Source: Staphylococcus phage Fi4S2. Taken from it: a stretch of 64,000 nucleotides of DNA. Under the pieces are notes generated by a model. The model ran no database searches and was not told the DNA's origin. It saw only the letters and a program-made list of their open reading frames with translations. The translations under genes were made by a program, and so were the position numbers. The stretch lies in sequence record PV037056.1. One strand, 5' to 3'. Shown one piece after another: positions 3,771-60,076 of the stretch; position 1 is the first letter of the stretch, and every line of letters begins with the position of its first letter.

Positions 3771-4178
3771 TCAACCTTTCTGTTTGAATGATATAATTAA
3801 TATGTCTTTTTTAAATGTATATTGCTGTCTTATACTTACCTTACCTATTACAACATTGCCATACTTTACATAATAACTCAATGTATCTGTTGTTAAAGTA
3901 CTATCTGAGGCATACTGTTTGAGGTGTAAGTACTTACGATTAATTGTACTATAATTAGCTACAATGTCAAGAGCATATTTTTCTTTTAATTCCATTTGAG
4001 CATCTGTTAGCTTATCGAACATCTTGGTGCACACTAGCGTATACTTACCTTTTTCTCTTGTTTTAGGGTGTGCCATTGTTCTGTTAGAGCCTACACCACT
4101 GTTTTTATACCTAGCTAAAACACGTTTAGTTGAATAGTGAGAGGACTTGCCTTTATTCATATTTTTATAGTTCATCAT
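3771..4178 (-). CDS. hypothetical protein
   Basis: 135-aa ORF. Confidence 0.45.
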   Translation of the reverse strand: MMNYKNMNKGKSSHYSTKRVLARYKNSGVGSNRTMAHPKTREKGKYTLVCTKMFDKLTDAQMELKEKYALDIVANYSTINRKYLHLKQYASDSTLTTDTLSYYVKYGNVVIGKVSIRQQYTFKKDILIISFKQKG

Positions 4179-4989
4179 TGAAATCTCCTCTGTACTTCAA
4201 TTCAGCAGGTTTACGGTATTGGAAAGGATGTTTAGAAACCTGTTTCTCAGAGTCCTTGATACCTAATACCATTGCCTTACCAAATAATGCTTTTAGTTGT
4301 TTATCATTTCTTACACCAATCATGTCTTGAATGATGGCAGGTTTTCTTAATGAGTTATTTAACATACCACGTGCTTCATGTCTTAGTTTGTCATGAGGCA
4401 TAACTTTATCTTTAGATGATGAGTTGTTTTTAAATCTATCTTTACCATGCATACGTATCAATTCAGCTTTCCATAGTACATCTAGCATGTGATAGTTAGA
4501 ATGTATTGGAGAGGGCATAGCTTGTTTGTACTTACCAAATATAGGCTCTCCCTCAAAAGATATATAGCTGATAATACCTACATGATTATGTTTGTATCTT
4601 TTTATTACTTGCTCTACCTTATCAATAAAGTCATCATGACAAACTACGTATACATACTCACAAACTAAGCTATACATACGTAGTTGTTTATTAAGTCGAG
4701 TGGTAGAGTCTCTTTCTGTCTTAATCTCTAGACCTATAGAAGTTCCTTCAGTGTCTATCATTAAACAATCCATGATACATTTACCTCTCATAATTGCTTT
4801 CTCAAAGATTGCAACCCTAAGGTCATCATCCTTAACTAACCCTTCTTCTCTCTCAAACATGTGAGATAAATAGAGTAAGCCATCTTTTATGTCCTGTTCA
4901 TAGTAACGTTCTTCTTTAGCTTTCTTGACTTCTTTTTCATTATCTACAAACTCACTTCTATACTTATCTTTTTTTACTCTCATAACCAC
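4165..4989 (-). CDS. hypothetical protein, possible PD-(D/E)xK-type nuclease motif
   Basis: 274-aa ORF; segment MIDTEGTSIGLEIK (D...E-x-K) resembles a restriction-endonuclease-like core; weak. Confidence 0.4.
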   Translation of the reverse strand: MVMRVKKDKYRSEFVDNEKEVKKAKEERYYEQDIKDGLLYLSHMFEREEGLVKDDDLRVAIFEKAIMRGKCIMDCLMIDTEGTSIGLEIKTERDSTTRLNKQLRMYSLVCEYVYVVCHDDFIDKVEQVIKRYKHNHVGIISYISFEGEPIFGKYKQAMPSPIHSNYHMLDVLWKAELIRMHGKDRFKNNSSSKDKVMPHDKLRHEARGMLNNSLRKPAIIQDMIGVRNDKQLKALFGKAMVLGIKDSEKQVSKHPFQYRKPAELKYRGDFNDEL

Positions 4990-5498
4990 ATGTCACTACC
5001 TTTTTTAGCTAACTCATCTTTTAGTATAGCTGTAGGTGTAATGTAAGTTTTGACCCATTCAATAGACTCTAAGGAGATAAATACCATTGTTATCTTCTCT
5101 TCTATCATTTCTTTTTTTGCATAATCCCATGTACTTGGTTCTCTCTCAAAGAACCCTAGACCTTCTTTACCTGTAACTGTATCTATACCAGGTACAATAG
5201 GTGCTATAAAGAGTGGTGGGTTAGTTCTTCTTATTTTCTTACCAGTTGTTCTAGGTAATACTTTCTTCAGGGCATCACTTAAAGCTGTACCCCCTACAAT
5301 ACCAGTAGTTTGTTGTTCTATTGTAAAATCTTTGATAGGTTCTTTACCATCTTCAACATCTGCAACACCATAAACAATAACAATACCTTTGTCATCTTCA
5401 GGTATCTCTACAATATAAAAAGGCTTTCCTTTAAAGTAAAGGATACCTCGTTGCATGAGTGTAGCAGGTGACTTGCTATTCTTAATATTAATTTTCAT
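4980..5498 (-). CDS. hypothetical protein
   Basis: 172-aa ORF. Confidence 0.5.
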   Translation of the reverse strand: MKINIKNSKSPATLMQRGILYFKGKPFYIVEIPEDDKGIVIVYGVADVEDGKEPIKDFTIEQQTTGIVGGTALSDALKKVLPRTTGKKIRRTNPPLFIAPIVPGIDTVTGKEGLGFFEREPSTWDYAKKEMIEEKITMVFISLESIEWVKTYITPTAILKDELAKKGSDMWL

Positions 5499-5559
5499 AC
5501 ACTATCTTCCTTCCTTTAGTATTATTAATAGTATACCATACATATTAATATAAGTAAAC

Positions 5560-5592
5560 AAAAAACCAAGAAATTAATCTTGGCTTTGACTT
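5560..5592 (-). terminator. rho-independent terminator (minus strand)
   Basis: ccaaga-AATTAA-tcttgg hairpin followed on minus strand by TTTTTTGTTT; overlaps stop of 5574..5954. Confidence 0.45.
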
Positions 5593-5954
5593 TGTTTTTT
5601 CATATAGTTTGCTTGTGCGATAGACATGATTAGGATATATACAATTCTAAATAAGGAGCCTATAAGCATAATAAATACTATTTTTAATAGTACAAATATT
5701 AAGCTATTCATAACTAAGGCAGGAGGTATCACTACTAGTATAAAGTATCCGACAACTAGACCTACCATACATAACCCTTCTCTTAGTAAAGTATTGACAA
5801 AGTGGTAGGCTGTTAAACCATTACCACCTTGCTCTTTTAACATCCTGCTGTTAGATATGTCAGCAAAGATGGATGACATCATGAAGGTAACACGCTGTAG
5901 TAATAATGTTATTAAGATAACTAGTTCTACCAATACCATATTAAGCATCTCCAT
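5574..5954 (-). CDS. small hydrophobic membrane protein
   Basis: 126-aa ORF, strongly hydrophobic (LVELVILITLLL..., VVGYFILVVIPPALV...). Confidence 0.5.
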   Translation of the reverse strand: MEMLNMVLVELVILITLLLQRVTFMMSSIFADISNSRMLKEQGGNGLTAYHFVNTLLREGLCMVGLVVGYFILVVIPPALVMNSLIFVLLKIVFIMLIGSLFRIVYILIMSIAQANYMKKQSQSQD

Positions 5955-51967: not shown

Positions 51968-51998
51968 TACAGGATATTTCCTGTGCTTTTTTTTTTGT
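51968..51998 (+). terminator. rho-independent terminator
   Basis: acagga-tatt-tcctgt, GC, then 10 T. Confidence 0.6.
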
Positions 51999-52026
51999 TG
52001 CAAAATAAGTGAAAGTGTGATATACT
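51998..52026 (+). promoter_or_regulatory. sigma-A-type promoter with extended -10 for helicase operon
   Basis: TTGCAA-17 bp-(TGa)TATACT; AGGAGG RBS; GTG start at 52058. Confidence 0.55.
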
Positions 52027-52057
52027 AGTAAAAGACCATAGAATAGGAGGATTTATA

Positions 52058-54622
52058 GTGAAGATTATTGTAGACATTATAGACAGCAAGATAGAGTTTG
52101 AACCTGAAGATGAGCATTTAAAACCCGCTATTATCAACAGAGCACATACAGATTTAGGTGCTAGAGACCCAAACTTTTTGCATGATAGAAGGTATAAGTT
52201 AGGTATATGGGATGGGATGATAGACTTTTACGATGCAAAAAACCACTCATTCCCTACAGGACTTCTAGAAAAAGTTATGATTATGCTAGGGGACATGCAG
52301 TCACAGTATGGGTTTACATACTCTGTAGAGGACTTCAGACCTGACACATTTTTAGATGTTGATGAGATGGATGAGGAGATAGTTTTAAAGGATGAAGAGT
52401 TAGGCTCCATAACGCTCAGAGACTATCAACACGATGCAGTAAAAGGTATCATAGAACATATGAATGGTATTGTTAACCTAAGCACTAATGCAGGTAAATG
52501 TATCAATAAGAATACAAGAATACTTACAGCTCAAGGTTATAAAACACTGGAGGACATCTTTACAGAACAAGGTATAAGTTTAGATGGTGATGAAGAAGTT
52601 ATACCATTAAAGTATACGCTTATTAATCGTTATGGAAAGAGAGAGCAAACAAGTCATTTTACAAAGAATGGTATTAAGCCTACTAAAGTAATAACTACAC
52701 ACAGAGGAACAACATTGAATACAACCTATAATCATCCATTGTTAGTAGATAGAGAGGGCATACCTGAGTGGGTTAAAGCAGAGGACTTAAAAGCAGGAGA
52801 CAAACTATATGCTAGAGCTGGAGATAATGTATTTGGTACAGATAAAACAGTTAGGTCTGAGAGTGAAGCTTATAGAAGAGGTGCTTTACAAACTGCAACA
52901 ACACCTCTACCAAAGTATATTCATCAAGCCCCAAGAAAAATACAATTAGCATTTCTTACTGGGTTTTTAAATCTAAGAGAAGGTATTGATTTACTAAAAA
53001 CATTACATACTTATAATGAACGTATTGTAATAGAAAGTCCATGTAAAGAGCTTTTAGAGGACTTACAGCTAGTTCTATCTAACCTAGGTATCCTATCTTC
53101 CCTGAAAGATACAGAAAAATCATCTTTTACATATTACGGTTTATTGAACGTGTATGAAGGACAAGAAGAGCTTAACATAGAAACTCAAACCTATTTACAA
53201 GAAGTTGTATCTATAGAAGAAGGGGAAGAGATTCCTACATTTGATGTTAGTATGCCTGAGACAAACTCATTCATAGGACAAGGAATTATAAATCATAATA
53301 CGGAAGTAGCTAGTGGAATCATTCAGCAGTTACTCCCTCAGTTAGAAAGAGGAGAACGTATTGCTTTCTTCACTAATAACTCATCTATCTTTTACCAGTC
53401 AGCTAAACGTATAGGAGATAGATTAGGTATTAAAGTAGGGTTATATGGTGGAGGTAAAAAAGACATCCAACAAGTTACATGTGTAATGTTACCTACGATA
53501 CATGCTGGGTTGACAGACCCTGAAAAAAATGTTAAACTAACTGAGAAAGAAAGACTATTTAAACGTATAGCCAAGGAAGTACTACCTCAGTTTGAATCAG
53601 GGGTAAACCAACGTTATCTACTGAAGCTATTTATTGACCGTTTTGAGCCTAAGACTAAAGTTGACTTAAAGTTTAAGCATGAACTTGAAGAGGTCTTACA
53701 TAGAAGTGGTTCTGATAGTGAAGTATTGATGAACTTAACAAAGTATGCTAAGCTATATAGAGAAACAATACAGAAGAAAAATAATAAAGTATATAAGAAA
53801 AATAAAGAAGTGGTAGACTTCTTAGAGAGTGTTTCTGTTATGATTTGTGATGAAGCACATCATACGTCAGCAGATACTTGGTACTACTCACTCAGACGAT
53901 GCATCAATGCTCAATACAGAGTAGCCCTTACAGGTTCAATAGAAGAGAGCAATGAACTACTTGTAATGAGGATGAAATCGGTATTTGGAGAGATAGTAGC
54001 TAAAGTAAGAAATAAACAAATGATTGAAAGAGGTTTTTCTGCTAAACCTATTATAAAAGTTTTTCCTGTAACTCAACCTAAAGACATATCGGGACTAAAA
54101 GAGTTCCAAGAAATATACAGGAAAGGTATAGTTGAGAATGAGTATAGAAACCTGTTGATGGCTAAACTAACTAAAACATTAAACACACAAGGTAAAACAA
54201 CATTGTTAATAGTAAACCATACAAAACATGGAGAGGCGTTAGTAGAGTTATTAGAGCAACTAGAAATAGACCATAGATTCATTCACGGTCAATTGTCTAC
54301 AGAGTATAGAGAAGAGTCATTACAATTAGTGAGAGACGGGAAACTAAGTGTCCTTATAGCCACATCTATTGTAGATGAGGGTGTAGACATCTCAGCTATT
54401 GACGCTTTAATACTTTGTGCAGGAGGTAAATCTCTACGACAAACCCTTCAGCGTATAGGTAGAACATTAAGAAAGAAAAAAGGTGACAATACCTGCCAAG
54501 TATTTGATTTCACTGATTACACACATGACATTTTACTTTCACACTCTAAGAAGAGAAGAAAAATATATGTAGAAGAAGAGTTTGAGATAGTTGACATACA
54601 GCCAAAAGCAAAACAAGGGTAA
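52058..54622 (+). CDS. SF2 DNA helicase precursor (extein 52058..52498 + 53300..54622) interrupted by intein
   Basis: Motif I STNAGK|T split by intein; motif II ICDEAHH; motif III LTGS; motif VI QRIGRTLR. Confidence 0.8.
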   Translation: MKIIVDIIDSKIEFEPEDEHLKPAIINRAHTDLGARDPNFLHDRRYKLGIWDGMIDFYDAKNHSFPTGLLEKVMIMLGDMQSQYGFTYSVEDFRPDTFLDVDEMDEEIVLKDEELGSITLRDYQHDAVKGIIEHMNGIVNLSTNAGKCINKNTRILTAQGYKTLEDIFTEQGISLDGDEEVIPLKYTLINRYGKREQTSHFTKNGIKPTKVITTHRGTTLNTTYNHPLLVDREGIPEWVKAEDLKAGDKLYARAGDNVFGTDKTVRSESEAYRRGALQTATTPLPKYIHQAPRKIQLAFLTGFLNLREGIDLLKTLHTYNERIVIESPCKELLEDLQLVLSNLGILSSLKDTEKSSFTYYGLLNVYEGQEELNIETQTYLQEVVSIEEGEEIPTFDVSMPETNSFIGQGIINHNTEVASGIIQQLLPQLERGERIAFFTNNSSIFYQSAKRIGDRLGIKVGLYGGGKKDIQQVTCVMLPTIHAGLTDPEKNVKLTEKERLFKRIAKEVLPQFESGVNQRYLLKLFIDRFEPKTKVDLKFKHELEEVLHRSGSDSEVLMNLTKYAKLYRETIQKKNNKVYKKNKEVVDFLESVSVMICDEAHHTSADTWYYSLRRCINAQYRVALTGSIEESNELLVMRMKSVFGEIVAKVRNKQMIERGFSAKPIIKVFPVTQPKDISGLKEFQEIYRKGIVENEYRNLLMAKLTKTLNTQGKTTLLIVNHTKHGEALVELLEQLEIDHRFIHGQLSTEYREESLQLVRDGKLSVLIATSIVDEGVDISAIDALILCAGGKSLRQTLQRIGRTLRKKKGDNTCQVFDFTDYTHDILLSHSKKRRKIYVEEEFEIVDIQPKAKQG
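52499..53299 (+). mobile_element. intein (267 aa) inserted in helicase P-loop
   Basis: Begins CINKNTRILT (block A), block B ITTHRG, degenerate LAGLIDADG-like LAFLTGFLNLREG, ends FIGQGIINHN followed by +1 Thr; coordinates from ORF start + residue count. Confidence 0.75.
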
Positions 54623-57768: not shown

Positions 57769-58350
57769 ATGAAATTTATATTTTTCACAGACAGTCATTT
57801 TCACTTATTCACAGACTTTAGTAAACCTGATGAGTTTTATCGTAATGACAGATTTAGAGAACAGATAGAAACTTTAAATCATGTTTTTACTCTTGCTAGA
57901 GAAAAGGAAGCTACAATTATTTTTGGTGGTGATTTATTTCATAAACGTAATGCTGTAGATACAGTAGTATATAATGAGGTATTTAAGGTATTTGCTAGAA
58001 ATAAAGATGTAGCTGTCTTATTACTCAGAGGCAACCATGATGCTACAACCAATTCAGTGTATACTGACTCAAGTATAGACACGTTTGAATACTTACCTAA
58101 TGTAAGTGTATTTCAATCTTTTGGAACTATAGAGGTAGGTAATGCAAACTTAGTATTTACAGCTTATGGTGATGAGACTGAAGAGATAAAGGACTACATT
58201 GAAGATAACTACAATACAGATAAGGTTAACATCCTTGTAGGACACTTAGGTGTAGAAGGGTCTTTAACAGGTAAAGGTTCACACAGATTAGAAGGAGCTT
58301 TTGGGTACCAAGACCTTTTACCTGATAAGTATGATTTTATTCTTTTAGGG
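57769..58350 (+). CDS. sbcD: SbcD/Mre11-like nuclease, exon 1 (motifs I-IV)
   Basis: GGDLFH (II), LLLRGNHD (III), ILVGHLGVEG (IV), ends YDFILLG where E. coli SbcD has DYIALGHIH; stop follows immediately. Confidence 0.75.
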
Positions 58351-58523
58351 TAGATGCCCTGCTTATTCGTAAAGAGTAAGTACCGAGTGTTAAATGCTAT
58401 GAATCCGTAAAGCTAACTAAACTGAAACAGAAGAGGAAACTCTAGATGGAAAAGTTGTGAAAACAGAAAAAATTAGTTAGATGTACTAAGGTTAAATCCT
58501 AAGGTATACACAATCGGTCTATA

Positions 58524-58680
58524 GCAGGGAAAGACCTAAGTTCAAATGAATAAGGGAGACCCTCAACGACTATTCCGTATAGGTGACGGAAGTAAAACCC
58601 TAAACGACTGAGGGAAGAAAAATACTCCTACCTTAACTAAGGTAGAACAAATAGTCTCCACCCGTACCGAAAGGTAGGGC
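58524..58680 (+). ncRNA. group I intron catalytic-core-like elements
   Basis: gCAGGGAAAg (P/P4-like, 58524-58533), GACUAU (58568-73) complementary to AUAGUC (58651-56) = P7-like, AAAUAGUCUCC (S-element-like), hairpin ttccgt/acggaa (58573-91), stem ctacctt/aaggtag (58626-46), cccgtacc-GAAA-ggtaggg GNRA-capped helix (P9-like). Confidence 0.5.
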
Positions 58681-58750
58681 TATAGATGAACTATAGGATT
58701 ACAAAGTGGTGTTTGTAATCAAAGAATGTTAAATAAATTATAACTTCCTA

Positions 58751-58779
58751 TTGACATTACTTCCCTAACATGTTATAGT
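58751..58779 (+). promoter_or_regulatory. consensus sigma-A promoter inside the intervening sequence driving tnpB
   Basis: TTGACA-17 bp-TATAGT, then TAAGGAGGTG RBS before ATG 58802. Confidence 0.5.
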
Positions 58780-58801
58780 ACATGTATAAGGAGGTGTAAT
58801 A

Positions 58802-60076
58802 ATGTCAGAAAGTACAACGTACAGAAAAATTAAAATAAGGTTAGTACCAACAAAAGAACAGGAAGAGTTAATGTGGAAGCATGTTCATGCTAGTAGATTT
58901 ATTTACAATTGGGGTCTTGAAAGGTGGTATAGTAATTTAGATAATGGAATAAAGAATACTACAAGTAATAAGTTATCTAAAGAACTAAAAACAGTGAAAG
59001 AAGAAAACCCATGGTTAAAAGAGGTATCTAATAAAACTTTAGTAAAATCATTACAAGTTCTAGAGTTTAATATGAAGAGGTTTTTTAAAAAACAAACTAA
59101 AAGACCTAAATTTAAGAGCTCTAAAAGCAGTATACCTTCTTTTAAAACACGAACAGAAACTAAGTGGGGTAATAAACATTTACCTAACATTGAAGGAGAT
59201 AGGATACGGTTAGAAAAACTAAAATTAGTTAAATTATCTTCTAAGATAACTAAATCTATGAAAGAAAAGAACATAAACCCTGTATTTTATTCTAGTACAA
59301 TCTATTATGATGGTAAATATTGGTATATTTCATTAGCATATAAAGTCGAGAACCAAGACAAAAAAGAACTCACCAATGAAACCATAGGTATAGACTTAGG
59401 AATAAAATCATTAGCTACTTGTTCAAATGGTAAATCTTATAAAAATATTAATAAAAGTTCTAAAGTTAAAAAACTAGAGAAAAGACTAACTAGATTACAA
59501 AGACAACTATCACGTAAGTATGAAATGAATAAAGATAAAATACGAGTAGGACTACTTAATACAGATGGAACACCTAAGATAGATAAGCAAGGTAGACACA
59601 TGTATAAGTATTCTAAAACTAAGAACATTATTAAGTTAGAAAAAGAGATAAAACTCTTACACAGAAAACTTAAAAATATTAGAAATAATCATGTTCATAC
59701 TATGACTAAAGAAATAGTAGAATTATTACCACAAGAAATAGTAATAGAAGATTTAAAAGTAAGTAATATGTTAAAGAATAAACATTTATCTAAACATATA
59801 AGTAAAGCTAATTGGTATGAAATACGTAGACAATTAACTTATAAATGTGAGGATAGAGGAATTCTTCTTACAATAGCAAATACTTATTACCCTTCAAGTC
59901 AAACCTGTAGTCATTGTGGTAATCGTTTAACCAAACAAGACAAACTTAGTCTTAAAGAGAGAACTTACAAATGTAAGAAATGTAATTCTAGTTTAGATAG
60001 GGACTTAAATGCTAGTATTAACTTAATGAACTATAGATACTCCAAATGGTGTCAAAATAATATAATTTCACAATAA
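58802..60076 (+). CDS. tnpB: IS200/IS605-family TnpB (OrfB; OMEGA RNA-guided nuclease)
   Basis: 424 aa; RuvC-I IGIDLGIKSLA, RuvC-II IVIEDLKVSNM, zinc finger CSHCGN...CKKC, RuvC-III DRDLNASINL; N-terminal OrfB_IS605-like region. Confidence 0.85.
   Translation: MSESTTYRKIKIRLVPTKEQEELMWKHVHASRFIYNWGLERWYSNLDNGIKNTTSNKLSKELKTVKEENPWLKEVSNKTLVKSLQVLEFNMKRFFKKQTKRPKFKSSKSSIPSFKTRTETKWGNKHLPNIEGDRIRLEKLKLVKLSSKITKSMKEKNINPVFYSSTIYYDGKYWYISLAYKVENQDKKELTNETIGIDLGIKSLATCSNGKSYKNINKSSKVKKLEKRLTRLQRQLSRKYEMNKDKIRVGLLNTDGTPKIDKQGRHMYKYSKTKNIIKLEKEIKLLHRKLKNIRNNHVHTMTKEIVELLPQEIVIEDLKVSNMLKNKHLSKHISKANWYEIRRQLTYKCEDRGILLTIANTYYPSSQTCSHCGNRLTKQDKLSLKERTYKCKKCNSSLDRDLNASINLMNYRYSKWCQNNIISQ

Follow-up and report, generated by a model that had tools for sequence, protein, structure and literature searches.

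Staphylococcus phage Fi4S2 carries, within a stretch of 64,000 nucleotides (nt) of sequence record PV037056.1 (hereafter the window), a helicase gene whose ATP-binding loop is interrupted by a segment of 267 amino acids (aa). Two questions are raised by this locus: does the segment belong to the mature enzyme or is it an intein that leaves the protein by splicing and, if it is an intein, how did it arrive at a size so far below that of its longest relatives? With high confidence, our analysis of motifs, profile models, predicted structure and orthologues identified the segment as a class-1 intein (Cys1 / His-Asn / +1 Thr) in the Walker A loop of a UvsW-like superfamily 2 (SF2) DNA helicase. 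It appears to be a degenerate member of the Twort-type family, predicted to splice but not to home, and the remnant of its homing endonuclease (HEN) is probably kept by a dependence between the HEN and the splicing domain, HINT.

The insert and its helicase

Positions 52499-53299 of the plus strand translate to 267 aa (CINKNTRILT...FIGQGIINHN), preceded by ...NLSTNAGK and followed by TEVASGIIQQ...; the Walker A motif is split as STNAGK/TEVASG (the slash marks the insertion point), between GK and T. The first-pass annotation, made from the DNA letters alone, had reported such an insert with Cys1, a TxxH block B, a C-terminal HN and a +1 Thr; its coordinates and translation proved exact, and all of these residues are present. 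Specifically, block B reads T76-Y-N-H79, and an alignment of 44 sequences showed C1, T76, N78, H79 and P80 to be invariant and T247, D249, P253, T255, S257, F258, N265, H266 and N267 to be nearly invariant. At the C-terminal junction (...IINHN/T), H266-N267 are followed by the +1 Thr on the C-extein. No other open reading frame (ORF) of at least 50 aa lies within 52499-53299 on either strand. The GC content of the insert (33.3%) is near that of its flanks (35-38%) and of the whole window (34.0%), and the insert is therefore not compositionally foreign.

A search of the 267-aa segment with hidden Markov models (HMMs), as the first-pass annotation had suggested, placed both Pfam and NCBIfam intein models above their cut-offs, well beyond what chance would give. 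Intein_splicing (PF14890) matched residues 9-267 over profile positions 3-155 of 155 (E=1.1e-13, 51.7 bits, cut-off 35.8), and the NCBIfam models TIGR01445 (intein_Nterm) and TIGR01443 (intein_Cterm) scored 29.5 bits (cut-off 24.5) and 16.3 bits (cut-off 15.6), respectively; Pfam LAGLIDADG_3, at 22.8 bits, was barely over its cut-off of 22.5. A sequence search of the PDB with the intein was much less informative than the fold search described next: it gave only marginal matches, among them weak ones to the inteins of Npu DnaB and of Pho RadA (the latter at E=1e-3). An AlphaFold2 (AF2) model built on the 44-sequence alignment reached a mean predicted local distance difference test score (pLDDT) of 92.7 and a predicted TM-score (pTM) of 0.89, with beta strands across residues 7-106 at block-mean pLDDT of at least 94. 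When this model was compared with the PDB by Foldseek, all 50 matches at E<=0.001 were inteins or HINT domains. The two best were VMA inteins associated with a HEN, TliVMA (7qsu; E=8.5e-14, TMq 0.75) and PhoVMA (7qst), the HEN of the latter being degenerate; PI-PfuI and PI-SceI were also among the leading matches.

Orthologues without the insert, whose alignment had also been suggested, agreed with these results. The insert was removed in silico, which reproduced the 587-aa product expected in the first-pass annotation, and a tblastn comparison of this spliced protein with 50,697 phage records gave matches in 788 of them. Many matches consisted of one collinear piece of ~1,745 nt, as in Mammaliicoccus phage PMS3, Staphylococcus phage Alsa_2 and the Listeria phages A511 and P100, and, when aligned as proteins, the orthologues that lack the intein show ...ATNGGK/TEIASG... 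without a gap where the window has 267 aa. This collinearity across GK/T ruled out a "normal conserved helicase insertion domain", which the first-pass annotation had named as the finding that would overturn its proposal. From a large protein database the whole precursor retrieved 123 relatives, and the intein alone (word-indexed search) 3 proteins. Among the 123 relatives, helicases of 576-596 aa have T after GK and almost all longer ones have Cys after GK, those that break the GK-Cys rule carrying an intein at another site; in all 67 of the 67 K/T-site helicases whose C-terminal junction was located, it reads HN/T. In addition, removal of the insert extended the ResIII match from profile positions 72-163 at 35.7 bits, as in the precursor, to 2-163 of 164 at 56.0 bits, and also raised the DEAD model above its cut-off. 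Because the intein HMMs, the predicted structure, the fold search and the intein-less orthologues agree, the proposed identity of the segment, an intein in an SF2 helicase, is very well supported.

The host protein shows the expected SF2 helicase motifs I (STNAGK/T), II (DEAH), III (LTGS) and VI (QRIGRTLR), the last three in the C-extein, where the DEAH box reads MICDEAHH. The precursor matched Pfam Helicase_C above the cut-off (E=1.6e-18) and ResIII as well, and the closest solved relative of the spliced sequence in the PDB was T4 UvsW (2oca, E=6.3e-19). The UvsW_N model reached only 17.7 bits, under its cut-off of 25.3; the term "UvsW-like" should therefore be taken to describe the helicase core, and orthology with UvsW is not established by it. 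The gene shares 95.8% nt identity with one annotated "uvsW: DNA helicase" in Staphylococcus saprophyticus phage vB_SsapH-Golestan-100 (hereafter Golestan-100), and positions 40000-64000 of the window share 95.3% nt identity with that phage over 92% of their length. The ribosome-binding site, hairpin and promoter-like arrangement upstream of the gene (Table 1) is conserved in Golestan-100. The window is that of a Twortvirinae (Herelleviridae) phage.

Table 1. Coordinates of the helicase gene, its upstream signals and the parts of the precursor (window positions)
Feature	Position	Strand	Remarks
Intein-containing UvsW-like SF2 DNA helicase precursor gene	52058..54622	+	GTG start, 854 aa; 587 aa after predicted splicing
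Ribosome-binding site taGGAGGa (GGAGG)	52044..52051	+	~7 nt 5' of GTG start; by-eye reading
Terminator-like hairpin and T-run, with -35/-10-like hexamers, upstream of helicase gene	~51969-52035	+	by-eye reading
N-extein	52058..52498	+	147 aa; ends ...STNAGK, first part of Walker A
Intein, N-terminal HINT half, residues 1-112	52499..52834	+	block A (Cys1), block B (T76-x-x-H79); TIGR01445 covers 1-83
Intein, linker and LAGLIDADG homing-endonuclease remnant, residues ~113-233	52835..53197	+	from alignment, Pfam and AF2
Intein, C-terminal HINT part, residues 234-267	53198..53299	+	blocks F and G, end ...FDVSMPETNSFIGQGIINHN; TIGR01443
C-extein	53300..54622	+	440 aa and stop; +1 Thr is the Walker A Thr of GKT

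Allelic relatives and origin of the 267-aa form

Searches by tblastn with the intein detected same-site inteins of 418-432 aa in Twort (ORF006), in Staphylococcus Sepunavirus and in Listeria, Bacillus and Enterococcus phages. Helicase inteins are also named in existing records: Twillingate, Terranova and Quidividi carry the annotation "intein-containing DNA helicase precursor" (Twillingate with an intein mat_peptide in addition), S25-3 and S25-4 "putative helicase with intein", the Bacillus BSP phages "putative intein containing DNA helicase", and the GenBank record of PSU6 "helicase with intein". The same-site element is also present in phiIPLA-C1C, Listeria LMTA-148 and Enterococcus phages, and the N-extein of Twillingate, Twort and LMTA-148 has 147 aa, as in the window. 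PMC5526547 credits Kwan et al. (2005) with a Hint domain in the helicase of Twort, and P-loops are recognised as recurrent insertion sites of inteins (PMC4760082). An intein-like match was found in at most 48 of the ~340 Staphylococcus phage records with this helicase. The helicase intein is thus a minority allele in Staphylococcus phages, but a well known one; the first-pass annotation, which had called such inteins uncommon in staphylococcal-type myoviruses, overstated their novelty, as the family is published and annotated.

Alignment of the window intein with the 418-432-aa allelic inteins revealed two internal deletions, of ~72 aa and ~78 aa. The former lies right after AYRRGAL, the stretch left of the first LAGLIDADG helix, and takes away most of that helix (AYVLGCMIADSYMG in the relatives) together with its beta-sheet lobe, and the latter takes away the C-terminal helical accessory region. 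The degenerate LAGLIDADG-like segment noticed in the first-pass annotation corresponds to the second motif, which survives as LAFLTGFLNLREG and aligns with block E (LAFLSGYLECE) of the full-size relatives; here the window has GFLNLR where the relatives have GYLECE, so that N and R stand at the two acidic positions, each of which is E in the relatives. In the AF2 model the remnant consists of helices at residues 121-130, 146-161 and 183-195 and strands at 176-180, 200-208 and 211-218, which form a single half-domain or lobe (helix, strand, helix, two strands) packed with the short helix 121-130. The features of an active LAGLIDADG endonuclease are therefore missing, since the block C helix is truncated, one lobe is deleted, the block E acids are replaced and the model has a single lobe. 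Nor is this a mini-intein, which is defined by HINT only and ~130-200 aa, because it has 267 aa with a folded remnant of ~110-120 aa; a true mini form, of 175 aa, occurs at the same site in another lineage (P0065). These comparisons suggest that the 267-aa size is the outcome of two internal deletions in a 418-432-aa ancestor, which left a predicted-inactive endonuclease remnant (a point missed in the first-pass annotation), and that the window intein descends from the helicase inteins of the Twort ORF006 type, a family in Herelleviridae whose members have ~420 aa and contain LAGLIDADG.

The 267-aa form with the same boundaries was found in three other sequences, those of Golestan-100, P0004 and P0005. 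The precursor of P0004, which is metagenomic, is 99% identical to that of the window; the precursor of P0005, from a metagenomic contig of 42.9 kb whose genes are arranged in the same order, is 90% identical. The C-terminal HINT part shows 100% aa identity to Golestan-100 and 94% to P0005, and both acidic replacements in the remaining motif are identical in P0005. Golestan-100 is an isolated lytic phage, and the 267-aa precursor form therefore occurs in a viable virus. By identity, the exteins are nearest to those of PMS3 and the Listeria phages, and the intein to those of Staphylococcus Sepunavirus and Twort; as a sign of horizontal transfer, this incongruence is weak.

In the retrieved helicases, inteins at this one site measure 175, 250, 267, 271, 293, 305, 316, 386 and 418-438 aa, and empty sites occur as well. 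The deletion boundaries of the shortened inteins differ, which indicates that the endonuclease has probably been eroded repeatedly and independently at this site; repeated erosion is predicted by the homing-cycle model, discussed together with HEN-HINT mutualism in PMC8966425. In all partly shrunken inteins (250-316 aa: P0055, P0058, P0069, P0090, P0097 and the window), the first LAGLIDADG half-domain is gone while the second is still there. Their deletion boundaries, at least five in number, differ between lineages, and the decay thus follows a recurrent and directional pattern.

Several other arrangements were observed in these helicases. Three matches from the phage collection (H36, H37 and H60, covering residues 1-218) had been suspected to be further short inteins and proved to be full-size, ~420 aa, two of them (PSU6 and RSM-J51Sa) at another site, ATN/SGKT. 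In PSU6 (L009, 2569-5583), RSM-J51Sa (L011, from ~2551) and P0044, a ~422-aa intein lies at ATN/C...HN/SGKT, three codons upstream of GK/T, so that one P-loop has two non-allelic intein sites. P0089 (Bacillus phage BSP18), P0090, P0097 and P0105 have, besides the P-loop intein, a second intein of 130-369 aa in motif II, which splits the DEAH box as DE/C...HN/CHH. The intein-containing helicase of Alsa_3 (L008, 1513-4513) shifts frame twice in the intein region and is annotated as three coding sequences, reflecting either a disrupted gene or sequencing errors; its sister phage Alsa_2 (L007) has the intein-less allele.

Selection, splicing and competing readings

Rough pairwise Nei-Gojobori estimates of the ratio of non-synonymous to synonymous substitution rates (dN/dS) against P0005 were 0.028 for the exteins, 0.069 for the whole intein and 0.094 for the remnant (121 codons; 78.5% aa identity and 71% nt identity), and the remnant gave 0.076 against Golestan-100. 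Synonymous changes in the remnant exceeded non-synonymous ones significantly (binomial test, p=1e-12 for the comparison with P0005 and p=1e-7 for that with Golestan-100). The remnant is under purifying selection, and is not drifting or decaying. Most likely, it has been retained because the HINT domain can no longer fold or splice properly in its absence, a relation known as HEN-HINT mutualism. A stronger proposal is that the remnant is a functionally required, convergently retained part of the intein rather than decaying junk, as all 250-316-aa forms keep the second half-domain and the dN/dS of the remnant in the window lineage is ~0.09; we offer it tentatively, as a possible though doubtful extension.

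The splicing chemistry of class-1 inteins is established, and the window intein would be expected to follow it. The 854-aa precursor would be translated and its HINT domain would then fold; Cys1 would undergo an N-S acyl shift, and the +1 Thr, which is also the Walker A Thr, would attack the thioester in a trans-esterification. Asn267 would cyclise with the help of His266 and release the 267-aa intein, after which an O-N shift would reform the GK-T peptide bond and yield the 587-aa helicase with an intact P-loop. Since the +1 nucleophile is the Walker A Thr and the insert splits GK/T, helicase function would depend on splicing, and an unspliced precursor presumably could not have a functional ATP site. 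This dependence could account for the strong conservation of the splicing residues. The ORF list shows no free-standing endonuclease ORF in or adjoining the helicase gene in the window, and there is no intact endonuclease in the intein; for these reasons the element should splice but no longer home by itself, and should now be vertically inherited in the phage lineage.

Some points weigh against this interpretation. The literature search found no experimental splicing test of any allelic helicase intein. The endonuclease is judged inactive from its missing motifs alone, and residual activity is possible: a Glu stands one position after the replaced catalytic residue (LNLREG), and single-motif LAGLIDADG enzymes can act as homodimers. 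With regard to selection, dS against P0005 is near saturation (~2), which makes the dN/dS ratios approximate while leaving their direction clear, and a low dN/dS points to constraint on the remnant without specifying its cause.

The same observations bear on three other readings of the locus. If the segment were a helicase insertion domain of the usual kind, specific to this lineage, or a HINT or bacterial-intein-like domain that does not splice, it would stay in the mature protein; purifying selection on the insert is what a functional domain would show, and splicing is a prediction here. This reading seems to us exceedingly improbable, for an unspliced protein with the insert between K and T of GKT would have no P-loop, most orthologues read straight through without it, and C1, TxxH, HN and +1 T are all present and invariant or nearly so in the 44 aligned sequences. 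Moreover, the match is to Intein_splicing, beyond generic HINT models, and annotations of relatives already call the element an intein. Continued mobility, with the single LAGLIDADG half-domain acting as a homodimer or with an endonuclease supplied in trans, is also very unlikely. The remnant is folded in the model and under purifying selection, a Glu adjoins the replaced catalytic position, and single-motif LAGLIDADG homodimers such as I-CreI are established enzymes; against this, both acidic motif positions are replaced, the accessory DNA-binding regions of the 418-432-aa relatives are deleted, and the window has no free-standing endonuclease ORF in or beside the gene. A homing endonuclease acting in trans from a ~2-kb insertion upstream of the Golestan-100 helicase gene was considered and rejected, as the insertion encodes a Sak single-strand annealing protein and DUF2483 and DUF6551 proteins but no homing endonuclease, and is absent from the window.

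Finally, the intein might have been co-opted as a conditional post-translational switch on the helicase, responsive to redox state, metals or temperature, as has been proposed for the mycobacterial DnaB inteins, with the remnant conserved for that role. Its P-loop position would make helicase activity strictly splicing-dependent, purifying selection spans the whole intein including the remnant, and DnaB provides documented cases of P-loop helicase inteins that splice conditionally (PMC6195587 and PMC7360933). The need for efficient splicing explains the constraint equally well, however; the intein is absent from most related phages, and the sizes of the inteins at the site form a series that resembles plain decay. 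We therefore consider regulation unlikely, if somewhat less so than mobility, and favor a splicing, non-homing intein whose remnant is held by HEN-HINT dependence.

Neighbouring elements, implications and comparison with known systems

Beyond the helicase gene, the first-pass annotation had listed an intron and an IStron, which together with the intein were taken as three self-splicing strategies in one window. This count was not supported: with Rfam, neither gathering thresholds nor a limit of E<=0.05 gave a group I or II intron anywhere in the window, and there was no group I intron at 57769-60677, where the IStron label was consequently not confirmed. The only real Rfam match in the window was RAGATH-18 (60120-60210, 65.8 bits), an RNA located just after a TnpB (IS605 OrfB) ORF at 58802-60076. 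This ORF separates 57769-58353, which has a Metallophos match, from 60123-60677, which has no Pfam match; relatives have one 341-aa SbcD-like Metallophos gene at the position of window 57769-60677. A hairpin at 23298-23405 matched the mir-315 Rfam model equally on both strands, at 42 bits against a gathering threshold of 63, and is probably just a long inverted repeat. The insertion in Golestan-100 (L001, ~3885-5890, minus strand) holds the genes for Sak and DUF2483, a 91-aa ORF and a DUF6551 gene with a weak GmrSD_N match; its site corresponds to window ~51995 and falls within the T-run that belongs to the terminator-like hairpin, with the tail-fibre gene on one side and the promoter region of the helicase on the other.

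Same-site helicase inteins of Herelleviridae are already known, both published and annotated, and current understanding is unchanged by the window intein. What is new here is the lineage-specific 267-aa form, the missing annotation in Golestan-100 and the purifying selection on the endonuclease remnant. Annotations of the gene in this lineage, that of GenBank LC647030 among them, should name it an intein-containing helicase precursor and give 587 aa for the mature product. The helicase P-loop site of Herelleviridae offers a full allelic size series, from empty through 175 aa to 438 aa, in which the window copy is a stable intermediate that could serve to test the homing-cycle model and HEN-HINT mutualism. 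Should HINT require the remnant in order to fold or splice, or should the remnant have acquired a function in DNA binding or regulation through which maturation of the helicase becomes conditional, the size series would be a natural experiment on this mutualism. Furthermore, a compact Cys1/+1 Thr intein from a phage of a mesophilic Gram-positive host, if it splices as predicted, is a candidate splicing tool.

Among known systems, the closest is the helicase intein of Golestan-100 (LC647030), which also has 267 aa, with 97.4% aa identity and the same deletion boundaries and gene context. The record of that phage gives "uvsW: DNA helicase" only and the paper describing it mentions no intein; the two phages differ in the ~2-kb insertion upstream of the helicase gene. 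The inteins of Twort ORF006 and of Sepunavirus (Twillingate, Terranova, Quidividi, S25-3/4 and phiIPLA-C1C) occupy the same gene at the same GK/T site after extein residue 147 and have the same splicing residues (Cys1, TYNH, HN and +1 Thr); their aa identity to the window intein is 50-52% across the aligned columns and 55-59% if only the N-terminal half of HINT is compared. These inteins are 418-420 aa long and possess both LAGLIDADG motifs (MIADSY and GYLECE) as well as the accessory helices at the C-terminal end, whereas the window intein is ~150 residues shorter and the motif that remains in it is devoid of acidic residues.

More distant counterparts share either the site or the state of the endonuclease. 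The P-loop inteins of DnaB site b, MCM site a, RFC-S site a, RecA/RadA and phage terminases likewise lie inside the Walker A motif of replication or recombination ATPases (PMC4760082), but their host proteins are unrelated, they are non-allelic, and the similarity is confined to the HINT blocks. The PhoVMA intein (PDB 7qst) combines HINT with a LAGLIDADG domain that has no catalytic acidic residues, as in the window intein, and this degenerate domain has been read as a step in the homing cycle (PMC8966425). PhoVMA differs in its archaeal V-ATPase host protein and in sequence, with only 16% identity to the window intein, and it preserves both lobes of the HEN, of which the window intein has lost one completely.

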